From a virus (lineage: Duplodnaviria; Heunggongvirae; Uroviricota; Caudoviricetes), in the IMG/VR virus record IMGVR_UViG_2703718851_000007: a DNA stretch of 10,730 nt; one strand, written 5' to 3'. The notes beneath the pieces are model-generated. The model saw nothing but the letters and a program-made list of their open reading frames with translations, searched no databases and was not told where the DNA came from. A program made the position numbers and the translations under genes. The first letter of the stretch is position 1, and each line of letters begins with the position of its first letter. This document shows, piece after piece, positions 545 to 10,730 of this stretch.

Positions 545-1198
545 TCAAGCCTGTTTTGTATCATTAGTATTTTTAGCGGTATGTCCGTCATATGCAGCAA
601 GGTAACTGCCATAGTGACGAAATAGCATTTCTGGTCCCTTATGGCCCATCTGGCCTGCAAGCCAGAACAGGTTCGCACCACGGCTGATATGGCTGGTGGC
701 GAATGTATGCCTGGTCTGATATGGGTTACGGTACCGGATACCTGCTTTACGTAAGGTTGGTATCCACGCTTTTTTCCTTATCGCATCGGCGCTGGCCCAC
801 GGTTTGTTTGTCTTTGGATCTTCAAAGACAGTAGCATCCTTCATGAATGTAAATGGCTTCTGATTTATCAGCGCCAACATTGCCTCTTCTGTCAGTTCAA
901 CTTTACGAGTACCGGCTTTTGTCTTTGTTCCTTTGATAACACCGACAACACTTGCGCTCTGGACATGGGCAGTTTTTCCAACAAAGTCGATATCACGCCA
1001 TCGAAGGGCACATAATTCAGAACTACGCAGGCCTGTATGTATAGCGAACCGGAACAGATTTTCCCATTGTTTGTTTCCGGCTGCTGCTAGTAATGCATCA
1101 ACTTCTGCTGGTGATAGCGGATCAACCACGTAGCTGCTTTCTGCTTCTGACTTATCACTTTGGTAGCGCGAAGCAGTTAACCGCAATGCGTCGAATGT
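545..1198 (-). pseudogene. Phage tyrosine integrase, 5'-truncated (catalytic domain only)
   Basis: Minus-strand frame is open only between an in-frame TAA (plus 1199-1201) and the stop at 545; no ATG near the 5' end (first start-like codon is TTG at 1186). Translation carries tyrosine-recombinase catalytic motifs (HTGLRSSEL, RHTFATSH, MGHKGPEMLFRHYGSY) but only about 25 residues precede the catalytic domain, whereas phage integrases are typically 330-400 aa with N-terminal arm/core-binding domains. Confidence 0.7.
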
Positions 1199-1888: not shown

Positions 1889-2377
1889 ATGAGTCTTTTG
1901 AATGACGTTCAGAAATTCATTGAAGCCCATCCGGGGTGTACTTCCGGAGACATTGCGGATGCTTTTGCAGGTTACTCACGGCAGCGCGTTCTGCAGTCAG
2001 CAAGCAAGTTACGTCAGAGTGGTCGTGTGGCTCACCGTTGTGAAGGGGATACACGCAGACATTTCCCGCGCCTGACTGAGAGAGCGCAGGAGGCGGAACC
2101 GCAACCAGTTCGTGAAACCAGACCTGTGCGCAATTTCTATGTCGGCACTAACGATCCCCGGGTGATTTTGTGCCTGACCCGCCAGGCGGAAGAACTGGAG
2201 TCCAGGGGCTTATACCGTCGTGCTGCAACGGTGTGGATGGCGGCATTCCGTGAAAGCCACTCCCAGCAAGAGCGAAACAATTTTCTTGCGCGTCGTGAGC
2301 GGTGTTTACGGAAAAGCAGCAAGCGCGCTGTATCGGGTGAAGAGTGGTATCTGTCAGGGAATTACGTGGGGGCGTAA
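1889..2377 (+). CDS. PerC-family-like transcriptional regulator (phage-encoded)
   Basis: ATG at 1889 preceded by GGGGGTGA; the track ORF begins at GTG 1883. Stop TAA 2375-2377 overlaps the next start (TAATG). C-terminal segment ...TRQAEELESRGLYRRAATVWMAAFRESHSQQERNNFLARRERCL resembles the PerC/Pch motif (KGLWRRAA...W) as recalled; the N-terminal 100 aa are unassigned. Confidence 0.45.
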   Translation: MSLLNDVQKFIEAHPGCTSGDIADAFAGYSRQRVLQSASKLRQSGRVAHRCEGDTRRHFPRLTERAQEAEPQPVRETRPVRNFYVGTNDPRVILCLTRQAEELESRGLYRRAATVWMAAFRESHSQQERNNFLARRERCLRKSSKRAVSGEEWYLSGNYVGA

Positions 2378-2703
2378 TGACGACGTTAACTCAATGCCAG
2401 CAGCAGGTGCTGGATATGCTGATTTCTTACCAGAAAGAACGTGGCTTCCCGCCAACCAATCAGGAGGTGGCTACCATGCTGGGATACCGTTCAGTGAATG
2501 CAGCGGTGGAGCATCTTCGCGCACTGGAGAAAAAAGGCGTCATCACGATAAAGCGTGGCGTGGCCCGGGGGATAAAGCTTCATACCGCGGTGAAGGACGA
2601 CGACAGCGAGGCGGTCGGGATTATCCGCTCACTGCTTGCCGGTGAGGAAAACGCCAGGCTGCGTGCAGCCCACTGGTTACATGAGAGGGGCCTGAAAGTA
2701 TGA
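2377..2703 (+). CDS. LexA-like DNA-binding-domain protein lacking the S24 peptidase domain
   Basis: From ATG 2377: MTTLTQCQQQVLDMLISYQKERGFPPTNQEVATMLGYRSVNAAVEHLRALEKKGVITIKRGVARGIKL... aligns residue-for-residue with the LexA N-terminal winged helix ([68 protein letters not shown]), including the recognition-helix residues (S.NAA.EH). A hinge-like LLAGEEN (compare LexA VAAGEP) is present, but the protein stops about 20 residues later; the Ser/Lys peptidase domain is absent. The track ORF starts at GTG 2344; ATG 2377 is preferred by homology and coupling. Confidence 0.7.
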   Translation: MTTLTQCQQQVLDMLISYQKERGFPPTNQEVATMLGYRSVNAAVEHLRALEKKGVITIKRGVARGIKLHTAVKDDDSEAVGIIRSLLAGEENARLRAAHWLHERGLKV

Positions 2704-3305
2704 AGTTGATCCTTCCTTTCCCGCCCAGCGTGAACACGTACTGGCGACACCCCAACAAAGGGGCATTTGCTGGTAAGAGCCTGATAAGCGCGGCGGGGCG
2801 AAAATTTCAGAGCGCGGCGTGCGCAGCAATAGTTGAGCAGTTACGTCGTCTGCCGAAACCAACGTCGGCACCTGCTTCAGTGGAGATCGTGTTGTTTCCT
2901 CCGGATAAACGCACCTGCGCCAGCGCACCGCTGGATCCGCTGACCCGCGCCGTGGTGATTTCCCTGTTTACCTGGCGGCGGGCGGAGCCTGATGACAATG
3001 CCGACGTCCCGATGGGATGGTGGGGGGATACCTGGCCTGCGGTACAGAATGACCGTTACGGCTCCCGACTGTGGCTGCTTCAGCGCAGCAAACTGACCAA
3101 TCAGCTGGTGCAGACGGTAAGGGGGTATATCCGCGAATGCCTGCAATGGATGATTGATGACGGCGTGGTGTCCCGTATTGATCTGGATATTCGCCGCACC
3201 GGGATTAATGAACTGGGTAACAGTATCACTCTCTGGTGTCGTGACGGACCGGTAATGATTTCTTTTGATGATCTGTGGAGTGCGATAACGCATGGCGGAC
3301 AGTGA
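2700..3305 (+). CDS. Chimeric ORF: RusA-like (Holliday-junction resolvase) N-terminal fragment fused in frame to a GPW/gp25-like baseplate wedge C-terminus
   Basis: N-terminus MKLILPFPPSVNTYWRH...VEIVLFPPDKR parallels RusA (ITLPWPPSNNRYYRH...IRIECHMPDRRRRDLDN), but the catalytic Asp cluster is missing. C-terminal part (...RYGSRLWLLQRSKL...WMIDDGVVSRIDLDI...) resembles gp25/GPW baseplate proteins and sits immediately upstream of baseplate J. Start ATG 2700 overlaps the previous stop (ATGA). Confidence 0.45.
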   Translation: MKLILPFPPSVNTYWRHPNKGAFAGKSLISAAGRKFQSAACAAIVEQLRRLPKPTSAPASVEIVLFPPDKRTCASAPLDPLTRAVVISLFTWRRAEPDDNADVPMGWWGDTWPAVQNDRYGSRLWLLQRSKLTNQLVQTVRGYIRECLQWMIDDGVVSRIDLDIRRTGINELGNSITLWCRDGPVMISFDDLWSAITHGGQ

Positions 3306-4928: not shown

Positions 4929-5507
4929 ATGCATCGTATAGACACGAAAACCGCGCAGAAGGATAAGTTCGGCGCGGGTAAGAACGGTTTTACCCGTGGT
5001 AACCCCCAGACTGGCACACCAGCCACCGATCTGGATGATGACTACTTTGACATGTTGCAGGAAGAACTTTGTAGCGTTGTTGAGGCATCCGGTGCCAGTC
5101 TGGAGAAGGCGCGGCACGACCAGTTGCTTACCGCGCTTCGTGCTCTGCTGTTAAGCCGCAAGAATCCGTTTGGTGATATCAAATCGGACGGCACGGTGAA
5201 AAAGGGTATTAACTTTCGCAGCCTGACCGACAGCATAGATACGTCTTCACCAATGGGACGCTTTTTCTTCCATGTCATGGGCGCACTTGCCGAAATGGAA
5301 AGGGAGCTGATAGTCGAACGTACCAGGGCGGGATTGGCTGCGGCTCGTGAAGAAGGGCGAATAGGTGGGCGTCGATCAAAGCTAACTGATGAACAGTGGG
5401 CGCAGGCAGGAAGGTTGGTTGCAGCAGGTGAATCACGACAGCGTGTGGCATTAATTTACGATGTTGGGATATCGACGCTATATAAAAAATTTCCGGCAAC
5501 CAGGTAA
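4929..5507 (+). pseudogene. Fusion of a tail-fibre N-terminal constant region (about 92 aa) to the C-terminal half of a Pin/Gin/Hin-family DNA invertase
   Basis: ATG 4929 with GGAG RBS. Residues 93-192 ([100 protein letters not shown]) are near-identical to the Pin/Gin C-terminal half including the HTH. The invertase N-terminal catalytic domain (active-site Ser about residue 10) is absent. Residues 1-92 ([47 protein letters not shown]...) look like a phage tail-fibre N-terminus. Confidence 0.75.
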
Positions 5508-5575: not shown

Positions 5576-5595
5576 TACTGTATATAATATCAGTA
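5576..5595. promoter_or_regulatory. LexA operator (SOS box) overlapping the putative umuDC promoter
   Basis: TACTGTATATAATATCAGTA: palindromic CTGT-N8-(T)CAG with an AT-rich spacer, 17 bp upstream of the umuD ATG. Compare the E. coli umuDC box TACTGTATATAAAAACAGTA; the right half TCAG also occurs in the uvrA box. A TATAAT hexamer (5583-5588) lies inside the box. Confidence 0.7.
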
Positions 5596-5611
5596 TTAAT
5601 TGACGGTGATT

Positions 5612-6034
5612 ATGATGCAGTTTTTCACTCCCTCCGGGTTGCGTGCAGTGCAGCCGCTTCCACTCTATGGCGATCTTGTACCCTGTGGTTTCCCAAGCCC
5701 TGCTCAGGACTACGTTGAACAGCGTATCGATCTTAACGAGCTACTGATACAACACCCCAGCGCCACGTACTTCGTTAAGGCATCTGGTGACTCGATGATT
5801 GATGCCGGGATCGGCGAAGGCGATTTACTGGTAGTGGACAGTTCACGCAAGGCAGAGCACGGCGATATCGTTATTGCTGCGGTGGACGGGGAATTTACCG
5901 TTAAGCGCCTACAGTTATGGCCAACTGTCCAGCTTAACCCTGAAAACCGCGCCTGGTCGCCTATCATCATCGGGAGCGAAGAAACGCTCGATGTTTTTGG
6001 TGTGGTGACGTTCATCGTGAAATCGACGGGTTGA
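5612..6034 (+). CDS. umuD: UmuD (SOS mutagenesis protein, S24 peptidase-like, DNA polymerase V subunit)
   Basis: Strong similarity to E. coli UmuD over the whole length: cleavage site LVPC-GFPSP, catalytic Ser (KASGDSM) and Lys (EFTVKRLQL) all present. ATG 5612 chosen (MMQFF...); the track starts at TTG 5600. Stop TGA 6032-6034 sits 2 nt before the umuC ATG. Confidence 0.9.
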
Positions 6035-6036
6035 TC

Positions 6037-7305
6037 ATGTACGCGTTGTGTGATGTGAACTCGTTCTATGCCTCCTGTGAAACTGTATTTCGCCCGGATC
6101 TCAAAGGTAGGCCGGTTGTGGTGCTTTCCAACAATGACGGTTGTGTTATTGCCCGCAGCACAGAGGCAAAGAAACTGGGTATCAAAATGGGTGAGCCGTA
6201 CTTCAGGCAGAAGGACTTTTTCCGGCGCCATGGGGTGGTGTGCTTCAGCAGCAACTATGAGCTGTATGCGGATATGTCTAACCGGGTGATGACCACGCTG
6301 GAAGAAATGTCGCCGCGCTGTGAAATTTACTCGATAGACGAGGCATTTTGTGACCTCACTGGTGTACGTAACTGTCGTGATCTGACTGATTTTGGCCGTG
6401 AAATCCGTGCTACTGTTCTGCAGCGAACGCATCTGACAGTGGGTGTTGGCATTGCCCAGACCAAGACGCTGGCCAAGCTGGCCAACCACGCGGCCAAACA
6501 ATGGCAGCGGCAGACGGGCGGGGTGGTAGACCTGTCCAGTGTCGATCGCCAGCGCAAACTGATGGCCGCGCTGCCGGTTGATGAAGTCTGGGGCATCGGT
6601 CGGCGTATTTCGAAAAAACTGGAGGCGATGGGGATCAAGACCGTACTGCAACTCGCTGATACGGACATCCGTTTTATCCGTAAACATTTTAATGTCGTGC
6701 TGGAGCGAACGGTGCGTGAGTTACGCGGAGAACCCTGCCTGGCACTGGAAGAATTCGCGCCAGTGAAACAGGAAATTATCTGTTCCCGCTCTTTTAGCGG
6801 TCGTATCACGGAGTATGAAGAGATGCGCCAGGCGATCTGCAGCTATGCCTCGCGGGCGGCAGAGAAACTGCGTGGCGAGCACCAGTATTGCCGTTTTATC
6901 TCGGCGTTTGTGAAGACCAGCCCGTTCGCACTGAACGAGCCCTATTATGGCAATAATGCCTCCGTGAAGCTTCTGACGCCTACGCAGGACAGTCGGGATA
7001 TCATCAGTGCAGCCATCCGCTGTCTGGACGCCATATGGCAAGACGGATATCGGTATCAGAAAGCCGGGGTGATGTTGGGTGATTTCTTCAGTCAGGGCGT
7101 GGCCCAGCTCAACTTGTTCGATGATAACGCGCCGCGCCCGGGCAGTGAGAAACTGATGGAAGTGCTGGATCACCTCAATGCCAAAGGCGGGAGGGGGACG
7201 CTGTATTTTGCAGGACAGGGTATCCAGCAGCAGTGGCAGATGAAACGGGAAATGCTTTCTCCACGTTACACCACCCGATTCTCTGATCTACCCGTTGTCA
7301 GGTGA
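6037..7305 (+). CDS. umuC: UmuC (Y-family DNA polymerase V catalytic subunit)
   Basis: [22 protein letters not shown]...[11 protein letters not shown]...[29 protein letters not shown]... is near-colinear with E. coli UmuC (MFALCDVNAFYASCE...), with the catalytic Asp/Glu residues conserved. ATG 6037 preferred over TTG 6031. Confidence 0.92.
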
Positions 7306-7383
7306 TTTTCCGGTGACAGATTCTTCGGAAAACGGTGGATGAGTTTATTAGAAACGATAAATCAAATGTTCTTATTTTTGATT

Positions 7384-7420
7384 ACTAAGTCTCAGTTATA
7401 CAATTCGGCTGAGACTTAGT
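7384..7420. repeat. Perfect 12-bp inverted repeat (hairpin) between convergent umuC and the KAP NTPase gene
   Basis: ACTAAGTCTCAG (7384-7395), 13-nt loop, CTGAGACTTAGT (7409-7420). Lies at the GC-content transition; not followed by a clean U-tract on either strand. Confidence 0.5.
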
Positions 7421-7428
7421 ATGCCAAT

Positions 7429-9177
7429 TTATAGGCAAGAAATTGCGTGTCTTACTGTATTGTTTAAATCATATATCGCGCCATATTTAAAACTTTCTTG
7501 CTTACCTATGAAATAAATGTCAAGTTTTTGATTGAGGTATATAAGGCGCTGCTTTTCATTTGTGGCAAACTGAGATATGTTACTAATTCTATAATTACTT
7601 CTTAAAAAAGCGTTGAATTGCTCTATATCTTTAATGCTCCATTCTTTTAAAATGCACTTGGTCAAAAATGGTGCGCCAAGTACTTCTAGCGTTTTATAGT
7701 TTCCCATGGGATCTAATTTGAGTAATAAGTTAACATCAAATAAAGCCCAACCATCAGTTTCAATAATTTCCTTAATTGTCTTTAAGTTTTTTCTCTTTTC
7801 AATATTATTATGACGGCCTGATAATATTGAAAATATAAGTTTCCCATCATCAAAGCCACTAGTCCAACTACTGATTGGATTGTTGTTATGAAATTCAAAG
7901 TAAGTAATAATGTCCTCGTCACTAAATTCGAGTGATTTAGAACTCATGAACTGCAATGTTAGTAATGATGATTTTGGAAGATATTTATGATAAGTCAAAT
8001 ATTCATAGTTCTGAACCGCCCTAAGCCATTGGTGCAAATCACATGGTATTGTTCTAGAAATTAAACCAATAATCGTGGGGAAAAATTCTTTTTCATCTGT
8101 CTCCTGTAGTTCTGGTCGAGTTGAAACTGCAATATCAATTGTACTTAAAGGTGTTGGCACATAAAAAACATCGTCCAATATATCATAAAGAGAAACATGA
8201 CCACTGTAGTAATTTTTAAGGTGAATATTAATTTTATAATTGTGTAATGTAGACAAAAGTCTCGGTTCATGTGGATTTTCATCGCTGCTGGAATTTTGGG
8301 GTGGGATATGCTGGATGCTGTCAATGATCAGTTCGTCCATGGATTTGTTATGGATAAATAACAAGATAAAATATGACAAAATTGAGCTTAGTATGGTTTT
8401 AGAGGCGATTTTCCACTCTAGTTCAGGGTGGTTTTCTGCGTGTAAATATAATGGAAGTGCAGTATTTAAACACCTCATTAAAATTCTTATGTTAACTATG
8501 TTATGGTATGATATTATTTCTTCGAAAATCATTTTGTCTTCAGTGGGGAAGTACTGTAGTTTTTCTTCAATTATTCTCATATCTAATATGTCGCGAGGGT
8601 TTGGGTTGTAATGAAGTGAATCAGAAATAATTTTTTCTTTATGTTCTAATGACAGGTGGGATTCGGCAGATGTATTAGATATAACAATAAAATCCAAACT
8701 AGAGATTTTTGAGGTTGAATATAACGAATGACAATAAGTTAGTATTTCATTGGCCAGTGAGGGAGTGCTTAATCGCTCAATGTCATCTAATATAAATATG
8801 CCACTGAGTTTGGAGAGTATGTTCTCTCTTACACTTGAACCAATGGAACTGAACACACCATTAAGCACATTGGCACTAGCGGGAGAACCACTGCTTACAC
8901 TACCCAAACCAGAAATAGTATCTAACCCAGACTTAAGAGTGTCTATATCTTGAAGATAGTAGCAGTCAATAATCTTTGCTTTGAAATCTGCAAGAGACTT
9001 AACGCCTAGTAATGAAATATAATAAAACACATTAAGATCATAAAAACGAGGAAATACATTTTTAATAAAAAAAGTTTTACCTGTTCCCCATTTTCCATCA
9101 ATAAAAATAAGTCCATCTCTTTCGGATTGTAGAAGATGAACTATTTTTACAATCAAATTGCTATTAGAGTTTTCCAT
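7429..9177 (-). CDS. KAP-family P-loop NTPase (582 aa), AT-rich, horizontally acquired
   Basis: Walker A FIDGKWGTGKTFF at residues about 25-37. Walker B with the KAP-type Asp-Asp...Arg signature GIFILDDIERL about 90 residues later. An internal hydrophobic segment (TILSSILSYFILLFIH) is consistent with the membrane insertions described for KAP NTPases. Codon usage is dominated by AAT/ATT/TTT/AAA; GC is roughly 30% by eye versus about 50% for the flanking umuC. Confidence 0.65.
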   Translation of the reverse strand: MENSNSNLIVKIVHLLQSERDGLIFIDGKWGTGKTFFIKNVFPRFYDLNVFYYISLLGVKSLADFKAKIIDCYYLQDIDTLKSGLDTISGLGSVSSGSPASANVLNGVFSSIGSSVRENILSKLSGIFILDDIERLSTPSLANEILTYCHSLYSTSKISSLDFIVISNTSAESHLSLEHKEKIISDSLHYNPNPRDILDMRIIEEKLQYFPTEDKMIFEEIISYHNIVNIRILMRCLNTALPLYLHAENHPELEWKIASKTILSSILSYFILLFIHNKSMDELIIDSIQHIPPQNSSSDENPHEPRLLSTLHNYKINIHLKNYYSGHVSLYDILDDVFYVPTPLSTIDIAVSTRPELQETDEKEFFPTIIGLISRTIPCDLHQWLRAVQNYEYLTYHKYLPKSSLLTLQFMSSKSLEFSDEDIITYFEFHNNNPISSWTSGFDDGKLIFSILSGRHNNIEKRKNLKTIKEIIETDGWALFDVNLLLKLDPMGNYKTLEVLGAPFLTKCILKEWSIKDIEQFNAFLRSNYRISNISQFATNEKQRLIYLNQKLDIYFIGKQESFKYGAIYDLNNTVRHAISCL

Positions 9178-9254
9178 TATAATTGTTATCCTAATTTAAA
9201 GAGGTGTAAATAAAGCATGAAATAGTATAATGCTAATTTGAGGTAAAAACATTA

Positions 9255-9890
9255 TTATTCAATTGAAACAATAAGATATTCACCTTGATTTTTCGCATTA
9301 CCCATCGCTCGCGTAACTGCATGCCAGATAAACTTGTCAGCTTGCACGGCACCGTAGTCGGTAATCGCTTCTGCTTCCTTGCCTCGGCGTCTTGGCGCAT
9401 CCCATTCCCGGGCTGCCTCCGGTGACAATACAAGTGGCTGTCGGTCGTGTATATCAACCAAGCCTTCATCGGCCGCAGACGTCACTATTAAAAAACCTTC
9501 GGCCTCGTCACTACGTTCGAAGGGGCGCTGCCGATTGCCGCCATGAATATTGGCTACCCATCAGTTCGGTGAATGAAGTAGGGTTGTTTTTTTGCTATCT
9601 TCGGTCTTGTCGAGTAGGGCACCGAAGTTACCTTCAACGCCCCCTCTAAGAACCGTGCGTGAGAGTTTCCAGCTCACACGGCTCAAGCCTTATCAAACAC
9701 CACTGTGAAATGATGCGGCAGGTGCAGTCAGACGCGTGGTCCGGGATCGGATATAATCTGTCCAATCCGTGTCATATGGATTAAGTGCAGATGCGACGAG
9801 TCTGTGACGGACAATTTTGACGCTCTGAGCGTGAACCAGCCTCAGTATTGTAACTTTCCCCGTATCAGTGTCCCGATAAAGACCTGACAC
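9255..9890 (-). pseudogene. SRAP/YedK-like (DUF159, abasic-site processing protein) pseudogene, 5'-truncated with nonsense and frameshift lesions
   Basis: C-terminal ORF (9255-9485) reads ...AADEGLVDIHDRQPLVLSPEAAREW...GKEAEAI...FIWHAVTRAMGNAKNQGEYL, matching the YedK C-terminus (AADQGLVDIHDRRPLVLSPEAAREW...SWHPVSRAVGNVKNQGAEL). Upstream, a different frame gives KKQPYFIHRTDG-stop-PIFMAAIGS (YedK KKQPFFIYRADGQPIFMAAIGS: a Q codon is replaced by TAG), then a frameshift. Further upstream fragments (HLHL, GKVTIL) sit in two other frames. The N-terminal MCGR catalytic-Cys region is not present. Confidence 0.65.
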
Positions 9891-9896
9891 CCCATT

Positions 9897-10730
9897 TTAC
9901 TGCTGCCACCAAGCATATAGATCTAGACCTTTGGTAATTACACCTAAGAAAATCCCTAAAACTATTAATCCAGTCACTAATGGGTGTTCTTTGAGCCTCA
10001 TCGTTAACCAATATGGATGCCAGCTTCTTGGCCAAAACCATTTATTGTTAGTTTTGAGAGTACGATCATGAATCCGCTCAGCAATATTACAGAGTATGTC
10101 GACCTTTCGTAATGTAGACATTTCTAGCTCTCTATACTTACCTTTGACATATGCCTCGGCTTCCTCAGCGCCGGCTAAGACATCTTTATCAGCGATACCA
10201 TTTTTTTCAACAAGAGCTAACATTCTACCTGCACGGCCACTTTTGGCGGTATGCCCAATATAGCTTCGTCCATATATAGAAACGGCAGCTCTCGCTAAAT
10301 CGAGTTTTCTGTCATCAGTAAGTATAAAGGGCTCGCCACCTAGGACTGAAAATCTATGCTGTAAGGCCTGAAATCCGTAATTGTTATCTCGCATGTTCCA
10401 ATGCAGAAATGTGCATTGTGCGTATCTTTTCAGGAATGTAAAGTAGTTATCTAATAGATGATGCTCAAGGATATCGAGATTTTTTTCATCTGAAACATCA
10501 AGACCTAATAATTCTGCGGATCTATTAAGAGCCCAATGATCTGTTTGCCCACTGCCTAAATTTCTGACAGCAATAGAGGTGATCCTTGTGGATTTACCGC
10601 CCACAGCATCATAAAAAGATTCACATGAATAATGGACAACGTAGCATTGATGCGCATTTGCAAAACATTTTTCGATAAAACCAATGTACTCGCTGCGATC
10701 TCTAATCTGTTGTTTGATGGAAGATGACAT
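9897..10730 (-). CDS. Hypothetical protein (277 aa) with a C-terminal transmembrane helix; function unknown
   Basis: ATG is the last 3 nt of the window (10730-10728), so the true start cannot be confirmed; stop TAA at 9899-9897. C-terminus ...EHPLVTGLIVLGIFLGVITKGLDLYAWWQQ contains a roughly 19-residue hydrophobic helix. GC is lower than the host-like segments (about 40% by eye). No recognisable catalytic motif by eye. Confidence 0.5.
   Translation of the reverse strand: MSSSIKQQIRDRSEYIGFIEKCFANAHQCYVVHYSCESFYDAVGGKSTRITSIAVRNLGSGQTDHWALNRSAELLGLDVSDEKNLDILEHHLLDNYFTFLKRYAQCTFLHWNMRDNNYGFQALQHRFSVLGGEPFILTDDRKLDLARAAVSIYGRSYIGHTAKSGRAGRMLALVEKNGIADKDVLAGAEEAEAYVKGKYRELEMSTLRKVDILCNIAERIHDRTLKTNNKWFWPRSWHPYWLTMRLKEHPLVTGLIVLGIFLGVITKGLDLYAWWQQ

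Follow-up and report, generated by a model that had tools for sequence, protein, structure and literature searches.

The 10,730-nucleotide virus record IMGVR_UViG_2703718851_000007 from IMG/VR (Caudoviricetes), referred to over its whole length as the window, carries an AT-rich block of 1,949 bp at positions 7306–9254 that encodes one protein, a KAP-like P-loop NTPase (hereafter the P-loop protein, encoded by the P-loop gene). The best explanation of the block is a horizontally acquired single-gene moron cassette at a variable junction between umuC and SRAP, in the cargo end of an enterobacterial prophage, and the most likely role of its soluble product is to protect the lysogen from other phages or mobile elements. 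We favor, with a probability of roughly 0.55, an anti-phage ATPase that is encoded by the prophage, stands alone, and has an NTP switch governed by a solenoid acting as sensor. This reading is supported by a true, variably present insertion of foreign composition with a functional, intact gene, by the family link to the defense candidate PDC-S49, by the solitary carriage of the family as mobile-element cargo, and by one member (locus L111) that occupies the psu-int hotspot of P4.

A single-gene insertion between umuC and SRAP

In alignments with sister modules, homology runs up to the stop codons of umuC and SRAP and no further, and positions 7306 and 9254 are therefore the true limits of the insert. 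In the sister prophage at locus L002, which carries DinI, umuD, umuC and SRAP and no P-loop gene, the SRAP gene is intact and its 3' end overlaps that of umuC. The two stop codons abut in this prophage and at about 36 IMG/VR loci, which identifies the block as a true insertion. Its GC content is about 32%, compared with about 54% for umuC. Locally the values are 0.30–0.35 over approximately 7350–9300 and 0.51–0.58 in the umuC flank, and the shift extends to third codon positions, with a GC content of 0.326 and a third-position value (GC3) of 0.285 for the P-loop gene versus 0.542 and 0.626 for umuC.

The block contains a single long open reading frame (ORF) on the minus strand (7429–9177), with an ATG start and a TAA stop. 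It is intact and encodes 582 amino acids (aa; RefSeq WP_021574712.1, annotated as ‘P-loop NTPase fold protein’). Given the base composition of the block, stops should occur roughly once per 13 codons, and 582 stop-free codons would arise by chance with a probability of approximately 4e-20; the second-longest open frame in the block has 123 codons. On the left, the gene is convergent with umuC, which encodes a Y-family polymerase (6031–7305, plus strand) and forms a module with umuD (5600–6034, plus strand). On the right lies the remnant of a YedK-like SRAP gene (9255–9592, minus strand), which matches positions 152–213 of 214 of PF02586. Its C-terminal end and stop codon are intact, and PGAP annotates it as frameshifted with the N-terminus missing; it is co-directional with the P-loop gene and located upstream of it.

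Between the stop codons of umuC and the P-loop gene are 123 nucleotides (nt) of non-coding DNA (7306–7428, GC 0.34), which are missing from the sister modules and vary among family members. Two hairpins were found here, one directly after umuC (7306–7332) and one at 7384–7420, and the plus strand folds with −33.5 kcal/mol. The second hairpin is a perfect 12-bp inverted repeat (ACTAAGTCTCAG, a 13-nt loop, CTGAGACTTAGT) and lies 9 nt beyond the stop codon of the P-loop gene; it is specific to the cassette and has a U-tract on neither strand. Neither hairpin was accepted as a canonical intrinsic terminator, since a clear U-tract is missing. At the other end, 77 nt separate the SRAP stop from the P-loop start codon (9178–9254, GC 0.22). 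This region presumably holds the gene's own promoter and ribosome binding site; its matches to sigma-70-type promoters are weak only.

The block is present in three of 5,426 complete E. coli genomes, with 99.9–100% identity, and there is little or no variation among the copies in these genomes and in two IMG/VR contigs. In strain CP55_Sichuan an intact prophage of the myovirus type carries it at its far end, in the order tail fibre, invertase, umuD, umuC, P-loop gene, SRAP pseudogene, a 277-aa ORF and ssrA. The window is a heavily deleted version of a prophage of this type and contains deletion-fusion ORFs. These findings bear out much of the sequence-only reading, which had seen one long ORF in a block of sharply lower GC, convergent with umuC and flanked by a dead SRAP gene and a gutted prophage. 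The limits it gave for the block proved exact, and the variable presence for which it had proposed a check was observed.

The same arrangement, in which SRAP and the P-loop gene converge on umuC and umuD, recurs at four levels of P-loop protein identity. At 78% (L135) and at 59% (Citrobacter amalonaticus) the gene lies in the umuC/SRAP slot of lambda-like prophages, at 57% on an Enterobacter plasmid where only umuC is annotated beside it, and at 36–37% in the umuC/SRAP slot of a P2-like prophage of C. freundii. Between the loci, umuC is 80–94%, SRAP 87–91% and DinI 94–95% identical, while the P-loop protein is 36–80% identical, and the identity of umuC does not correlate with that of the cargo. 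By these comparisons, the history of the cargo is independent of that of its flanks. In every copy checked from enteric and Vibrio hosts the GC content is 0.29–0.34. Loci L100–L104 (58%) and L136 (70%), which seem to have no umuC, still contain a short piece of its 3' end, convergent with the P-loop gene and directly adjoining it on the downstream side (approximately 1744–1840 in L100 and 7789–7884 in L136). They are therefore deletion derivatives of the umuC/SRAP slot, and independent insertion sites for them were rejected on the same grounds.

Members with 22–32% identity have no umuC or SRAP nearby, as confirmed by a dedicated check on four of them. They were found directly after the integrase of an ssrA island (L011, 32%), as the sole gene separating int from psu in a P4-like satellite (L111, 31%), as a lone islet amid housekeeping genes (L013, 30%), within an element resembling an integrative and conjugative element (ICE; L140, 29%), beside a toxin-antitoxin pair of the RelE/MqsA type (L138, 25%), between the mor activator and the terminase and portal genes of a Mu-like phage (L112, 6944–8599, 24%), and in an integrative element beside toxin-antitoxin genes (L014, 22%). 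The psu-int locus of P4 is a validated anti-phage hotspot (Rousset et al., PMC9122126). The Mu-like phage is a 42.6-kb viral contig with a complete-looking genome, and the family is thus carried by a complete-looking phage genome in addition to decaying prophages. Members also occur on plasmids. No conserved partner gene was found across the at least 13 distinct contexts examined, in agreement with the proposal of a stand-alone gene.

The SRAP protein was used as bait on IMG/VR and 80 loci were retrieved. Of 47 junctions in close sister modules, about 36 are empty, and the remaining 11 (L062, L067, L072, L074, L079, L082, L085, L086, L089, L090, and L092) carry other AT-rich inserts of 0.5–1.6 kb with a GC content of 0.32–0.44. 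Most of these are single genes, and the inserts of L085 and L086 appear degenerate. The cargos include an aerolysin-like secreted protein, a transmembrane protein with pentapeptide repeats, a DUF4440 protein, a DUF2441-like protein, and several small membrane proteins. The umuC/SRAP junction is accordingly a general moron hotspot of enterobacterial prophage ends. The narrower designation ‘defense hotspot’ was rejected as unproven, as none of the seven other cargos that were classified matches a PADLOC family. When complete E. coli genomes were surveyed for the junction, chromosomal yedK predominated and only five intact junctions were recovered.

The family is under purifying selection. For four homolog pairs the ratio of non-synonymous to synonymous substitution (dN/dS; Nei-Gojobori) was 0.10–0.13, rough values given that dS is near saturation, and intact ORFs of 564–620 aa are found throughout the family. 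In three of the four pairs the C-terminal half has accumulated 1.3–2 times more non-synonymous change than the ATPase half.

Architecture and relatives of the P-loop protein

The N-terminal half (aa 1–250; 8428–9177) was assigned to an ASCE/AAA+-like ATPase core of five strands with a helical lid, and the C-terminal half (aa 251–582; 7432–8427) to an all-helical, HEAT/ARM-like solenoid of approximately 330 aa. A full-length AlphaFold2 model built with 33 homologs reached a mean predicted local distance difference test score (pLDDT) of 82.7; modeled separately, aa 251–582 were entirely helical with a pLDDT of 87.3. Foldseek searches against the PDB agree with the ASCE assignment of the N-terminal half at template-modeling scores of only 0.2–0.3. 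The nearest folds are those of the DNA-loading AAA+ proteins ORC, Cdc6, and TnsC, which outscore STAND proteins; the match to Pfam NACHT is confined to the P-loop (E = 0.055). No enzyme-like fold was found in the C-terminal half. Walker A is GKWGTGKT (aa 28–35; 9073–9096, minus strand) and Walker B is IFILDDIERL (aa 127–136; 8770–8799, minus strand). Among 50 homologs, down to 17% identity, residues G28, W30, G31, G33, K34, S55, D131, D132, E134, R135, K182, N229, and R231 are invariant.

The sequence-only reading had assigned the protein to the KAP family, and this holds for the motifs. Walker A has the KAP form GxWGxGK[ST], and Walker B (IFILDDIER, aa 127–135) the form hhhhDDx[DE]R. The assignment did not extend to the domain as a whole: Pfam KAP_NTPase is matched with 28.9 bits (gathering cut-off 20), and the alignment is confined to aa 10–42 and positions 9–41 of the 293-position profile. 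The best family member covers positions 7–196, whereas the control PifA covers positions 2–290 (E = 3e-43). Going by sequence signatures and profiles, the protein carries KAP-type Walker motifs and yet falls outside the canonical KAP family of Pfam. The internal hydrophobic segment of that reading also exists (aa 257–275; 8353–8409, minus strand), being the sole 19-residue window with a Kyte-Doolittle mean above 1.6 (1.89). It follows Walker B, however, and nothing hydrophobic lies between Walker A and Walker B. The stretch contains Ser, Thr, and Lys residues and is modeled by AlphaFold2 as helix H259–274 (pLDDT > 90) within the soluble helical domain. For these reasons membrane insertion is not supported, and in contrast to the earlier suggestion of a membrane-associated NTPase the model points to a soluble protein.

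Of the PADLOC families only PDC-S49 was matched. Profile PDLC05031 aligned its positions 27–322 of 624 to aa 24–314 with E = 7.8e-14, and two more PDC-S49 models also match. All of 50 distant homologs match PDC-S49, the best with E = 1e-66. Two homologs, P0089 and P0100, align to the P-loop protein over aa 13–580 (E = 6e-15 and 3e-13) and to the PDC-S49 profile over positions 27–621 of 624 (E = 3e-33 and 7e-29). Through these full-length intermediates the P-loop protein is placed in the PDC-S49 superfamily, as a member that is diverged yet related over its full length. Searched exhaustively with phmmer, 1.84 billion cluster representatives yielded 481 clusters (50% identity) at E ≤ 1e-3, the majority of 550–620 aa and many aligning end-to-end. 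The family profile found no PDB sequence at E up to 1, NCBIfam gave no significant match for the P-loop protein, and no literature was found on ‘PDC-S49’ or WP_021574712.

PDC-S49 (Payne et al., 2024, preprint 10.1101/2024.01.29.577857) is a single-gene candidate from a set of 145 proposed systems (PDC), selected for their embedding in BREX, DISARM, Type I restriction-modification (RM), and Hma loci. The likeness to the P-loop protein comprises full-length homology via intermediates, a similar size (approximately 560–620 aa), solitary genes, and a common core of invariant Walker A and B motifs, K182, and N229/R231. The enterobacterial clade differs in residing at prophage ends beside umuC/SRAP and not inside BREX, DISARM, or RM loci.

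Among proteins with demonstrated activity, EF_KAP and three metagenomic relatives are single-gene KAP P-loop NTPases that protect Enterococcus by up to six logs; protection requires the DD pair of Walker B and is reported not to be abortive infection (PMC12632615). This precedent and the relationship to PDC-S49 bear out the earlier designation of the gene as a defense candidate. Judged by their description only, these proteins likewise combine a KAP-type P-loop with a C-terminal region of approximately 320 aa in which no domain is recognizable, and they are located near a serine recombinase gene, as the window has a remnant of a pin-type resolvase (4929–5507). EF_KAP differs in having two N-terminal transmembrane helices, whereas the P-loop protein has none and its Walker A begins at residue 28; its hosts are Bacillota and not Enterobacteriaceae.

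PifA of the F plasmid, the founding prokaryotic KAP NTPase, which excludes T7, is similar in its GxWGxGKT Walker A and DDx[DE]R Walker B, in having no transmembrane helices, and in being a single protein on a mobile element. It differs in its length of 741 aa, its pairing with pifC, and its match to nearly the whole KAP_NTPase profile. The transmembrane helices associated with the KAP NTPase domain are missing in PifA and are thus not strictly required (PMC13001434). Tmn, of the Tmn/YobI-family NTPases, recognizes a phage protein through its variable ARM/HEAT-like arms, which drive the turnover of ATP, and its Walker A is essential (PMC13001434). The P-loop protein resembles Tmn in its combination of an N-terminal P-loop ATPase with an α-helical ARM/HEAT-like region and in being a single gene, Tmn often being carried by prophages or plasmids. 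Tmn is a membrane decamer with two transmembrane helices within the NTPase domain, whereas the P-loop protein has none and gives no PADLOC match to Tmn. Unlike STAND/Avs proteins, the P-loop protein has no effector domain at either end.

Proposed function and alternative explanations

In the mechanism we propose, the fast-evolving HEAT/ARM-like solenoid would bind a phage-derived protein or nucleoprotein. This would control nucleotide binding and hydrolysis at the N-terminal P-loop (K34, D131/D132, E134, and R135), with N229/R231 as candidate sensor or arginine-finger residues, and would probably drive oligomerization. As the protein has no effector domain and the gene no partner, the output is probably direct: the target could be sequestered or remodeled, the protein could be loaded onto DNA as ORC, Cdc6, or TnsC are, or ATP could be drained. 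We lend little credence to a further version, a distinct immunity mechanism in which the soluble ATPase would itself be the effector and might polymerize, as ORC, Cdc6, TnsC, or MuB do, on the DNA of the phage or on a protein of replication or packaging. The same holds for an alternative in which the persistent linkage to the umuC 3' end would reflect a real functional coupling of a phage sensor to the damage-tolerance module (UmuDC/SRAP) of the prophage.

Several observations weigh against an anti-phage ATPase. The P-loop protein has no recognizable effector, and the output step above is speculative. Its direct match to PDC-S49 is weak and restricted to the N-terminal half, a member of its own clade (P0038) has no PADLOC match, and the authors of PDC-S49 list it as a candidate only (10.1101/2024.01.29.577857). 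No relatives were found by tblastn in 50,697 deposited phage genomes. The immediate context of the gene is also something other than the typical defense island that had been supposed: no known defense neighbors were seen in the clade with at least 36% identity, where the neighbors are umuDC, SRAP, and tail genes, and the slot's seven classified cargos are PADLOC-negative. All examined copies with at least 36% identity are tied to the umuC 3' end, except the frameshifted L108, in which no remnant was found, and this tie could signal a functional link to the SOS module. Moreover, very AT-rich DNA (32% GC) is a typical target of H-NS and usually silenced in E. coli; together with the weak promoter matches, the P-loop gene may be silent in this host.

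The link to SOS is the main rival, and its support from persistent synteny is real. The P-loop protein would then be a functional accessory of the prophage SOS/translesion module (DinI, UmuD, UmuC, and SRAP); it could, for example, be a DNA-binding ATPase of the ORC/Cdc6/TnsC type that either loads on damaged DNA or senses it, with Pol V or SRAP as the target of its modulation. The gene order is retained from 78% down to 36–37% identity in lambda-like, P2-like, and myovirus prophages and on a plasmid, copies with no umuC retain a remnant of its 3' end, and the P-loop gene is co-directional with SRAP across gaps of 72–87 nt with no strong hairpin or terminator. The fold is nearest to DNA-loading AAA+ proteins, and SRAP-UmuDC is a recognized functional neighborhood (PMC3765255), although no such NTPase is among the SRAP partners listed there. 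Co-occurrence with the DinI-UmuDC-SRAP module is nevertheless not obligate. Most of the close sister junctions are empty and the others hold unrelated cargos, L002 has no P-loop gene despite an umuC 93% identical to that of L007, and members with 22–32% identity do without umuC and SRAP. The composition is foreign and the divergence uncoupled from the flanks, and the window retains an intact ATPase gene next to a SRAP gene that is dead. The region has a single LexA-like box, the expected one upstream of umuD (5578–5593); none was found upstream of the P-loop gene or of intact SRAP genes, nor in the gaps that separate SRAP from the P-loop gene, and SOS regulation of the P-loop gene was rejected on this basis. 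We consider a role in the SOS module quite unlikely.

A moron with a role other than phage defense, such as exclusion of plasmids or other elements, maintenance (addiction) of the prophage or plasmid, or host fitness and lysogenic conversion, is unlikely overall but has a real chance of being correct. The same slot carries cargos that do not look like defense genes (aerolysin-like, pentapeptide-repeat membrane, DUF4440, and small membrane proteins), members are found on plasmids, in the ICE-like element, and beside toxin-antitoxin genes, and the clade's loci show no defense neighbors. However, the related candidate PDC-S49 was found embedded in loci of BREX, DISARM, RM, and Hma, the P4 psu-int hotspot holds a family member as its sole gene in one case, the architecture resembles that of validated KAP-type defense proteins, and no secretion signal, membrane anchor, or toxin-like domain was found in the P-loop protein. 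We see only a slim chance that the protein is a PifA-like, membrane-associated abortive-infection factor that senses phage, perturbs the membrane, and kills or arrests the cell. The Walker signatures common to both, the one hydrophobic stretch, and the fact that PifA acts at the membrane though it has no transmembrane helices (PMC13001434) would fit this possibility. Similarity to PifA is nonetheless limited to the P-loop: hhalign gave 93.7% probability over just 37 columns around Walker A with nothing beyond, and BLASTP around Walker B gave E = 0.37. PADLOC groups PifA with QatA and PDC-S20, apart from PDC-S49, the hydrophobic stretch is a high-confidence helix of the helical domain, and EF_KAP, the only KAP-type protein tested for this, is reported not to act by abortive infection (PMC12632615). 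Least probable of all is that the gene, silenced or decaying, is left over from horizontal transfer and currently serves no function in the strain. The surrounding prophage is heavily deleted, the adjacent SRAP gene is a pseudogene, and the weak promoter matches and H-NS silencing mentioned above point in the same direction. Against this stand the 582 intact codons, the identical or nearly identical copies in three complete genomes and two IMG/VR contigs, a dN/dS of about 0.1 across the family, and the invariant catalytic residues.

The family and its architecture are already catalogued and related proteins have been validated, so that the P-loop gene does not represent a new kind of system. 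What is added is the exact anatomy of the insertion, an enterobacterial clade linked to PDC-S49, a correction of the membrane and defense-island claims, and the recognition of the umuC/SRAP junction as a cargo hotspot. If the P-loop protein does defend its host, this would validate the whole candidate family of PDC-S49 and its relatives (the 481 clusters) and would add a soluble example with no effector domain to the emerging class of KAP-type single-gene defenses. It would also help to ask how an ATPase with a solenoid stops a phage with no nuclease, pore, or NAD-degrading chemistry. The conserved umuC and SRAP flanks could serve as bait for harvesting many uncharacterized morons, and the annotation can be refined, modestly, from ‘P-loop NTPase fold protein’ to ‘KAP-like ATPase, PDC-S49-related defense candidate, prophage cargo’.

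Other features of the window

The 277-aa ORF occupies 9897–10730 on the minus strand of the window (GC 0.40). It encodes a C-terminal hydrophobic helix and has no Pfam or PADLOC match. In L001 it lies between the SRAP remnant and ssrA, and it was seen only together with 100%-identical copies of the P-loop gene; a two-gene system comprising both was rejected for this reason. The ORF may be a second, unrelated cargo gene.

Two deletion-fusion ORFs on the plus strand mark the points at which the prophage was gutted, the intact version being present in L001. The first (2700–3305) joins an N-terminus with no assignment to a GP46 baseplate domain, and the second (4929–5507) joins a tail-fibre-like N-terminus to the C-terminal part of the pin-type serine resolvase with HTH_7. 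Further upstream, a 119-aa protein (2344–2703, plus strand) consists of a LexA DNA-binding domain only (PF01726, E = 4e-19) with no S24 peptidase domain and, by its domain content, would be a non-cleavable LexA-like protein; its gene adjoins that of a PerC-like regulator (1883–2377). A 15-nt tandem repeat (TCTGACCCGTCAAAA, 4.3 copies, 81% matches) at 1254–1317 lies beside a truncated tyrosine integrase gene (545–1186, minus strand), and these repeats could be putative arm-type or regulatory binding sites.

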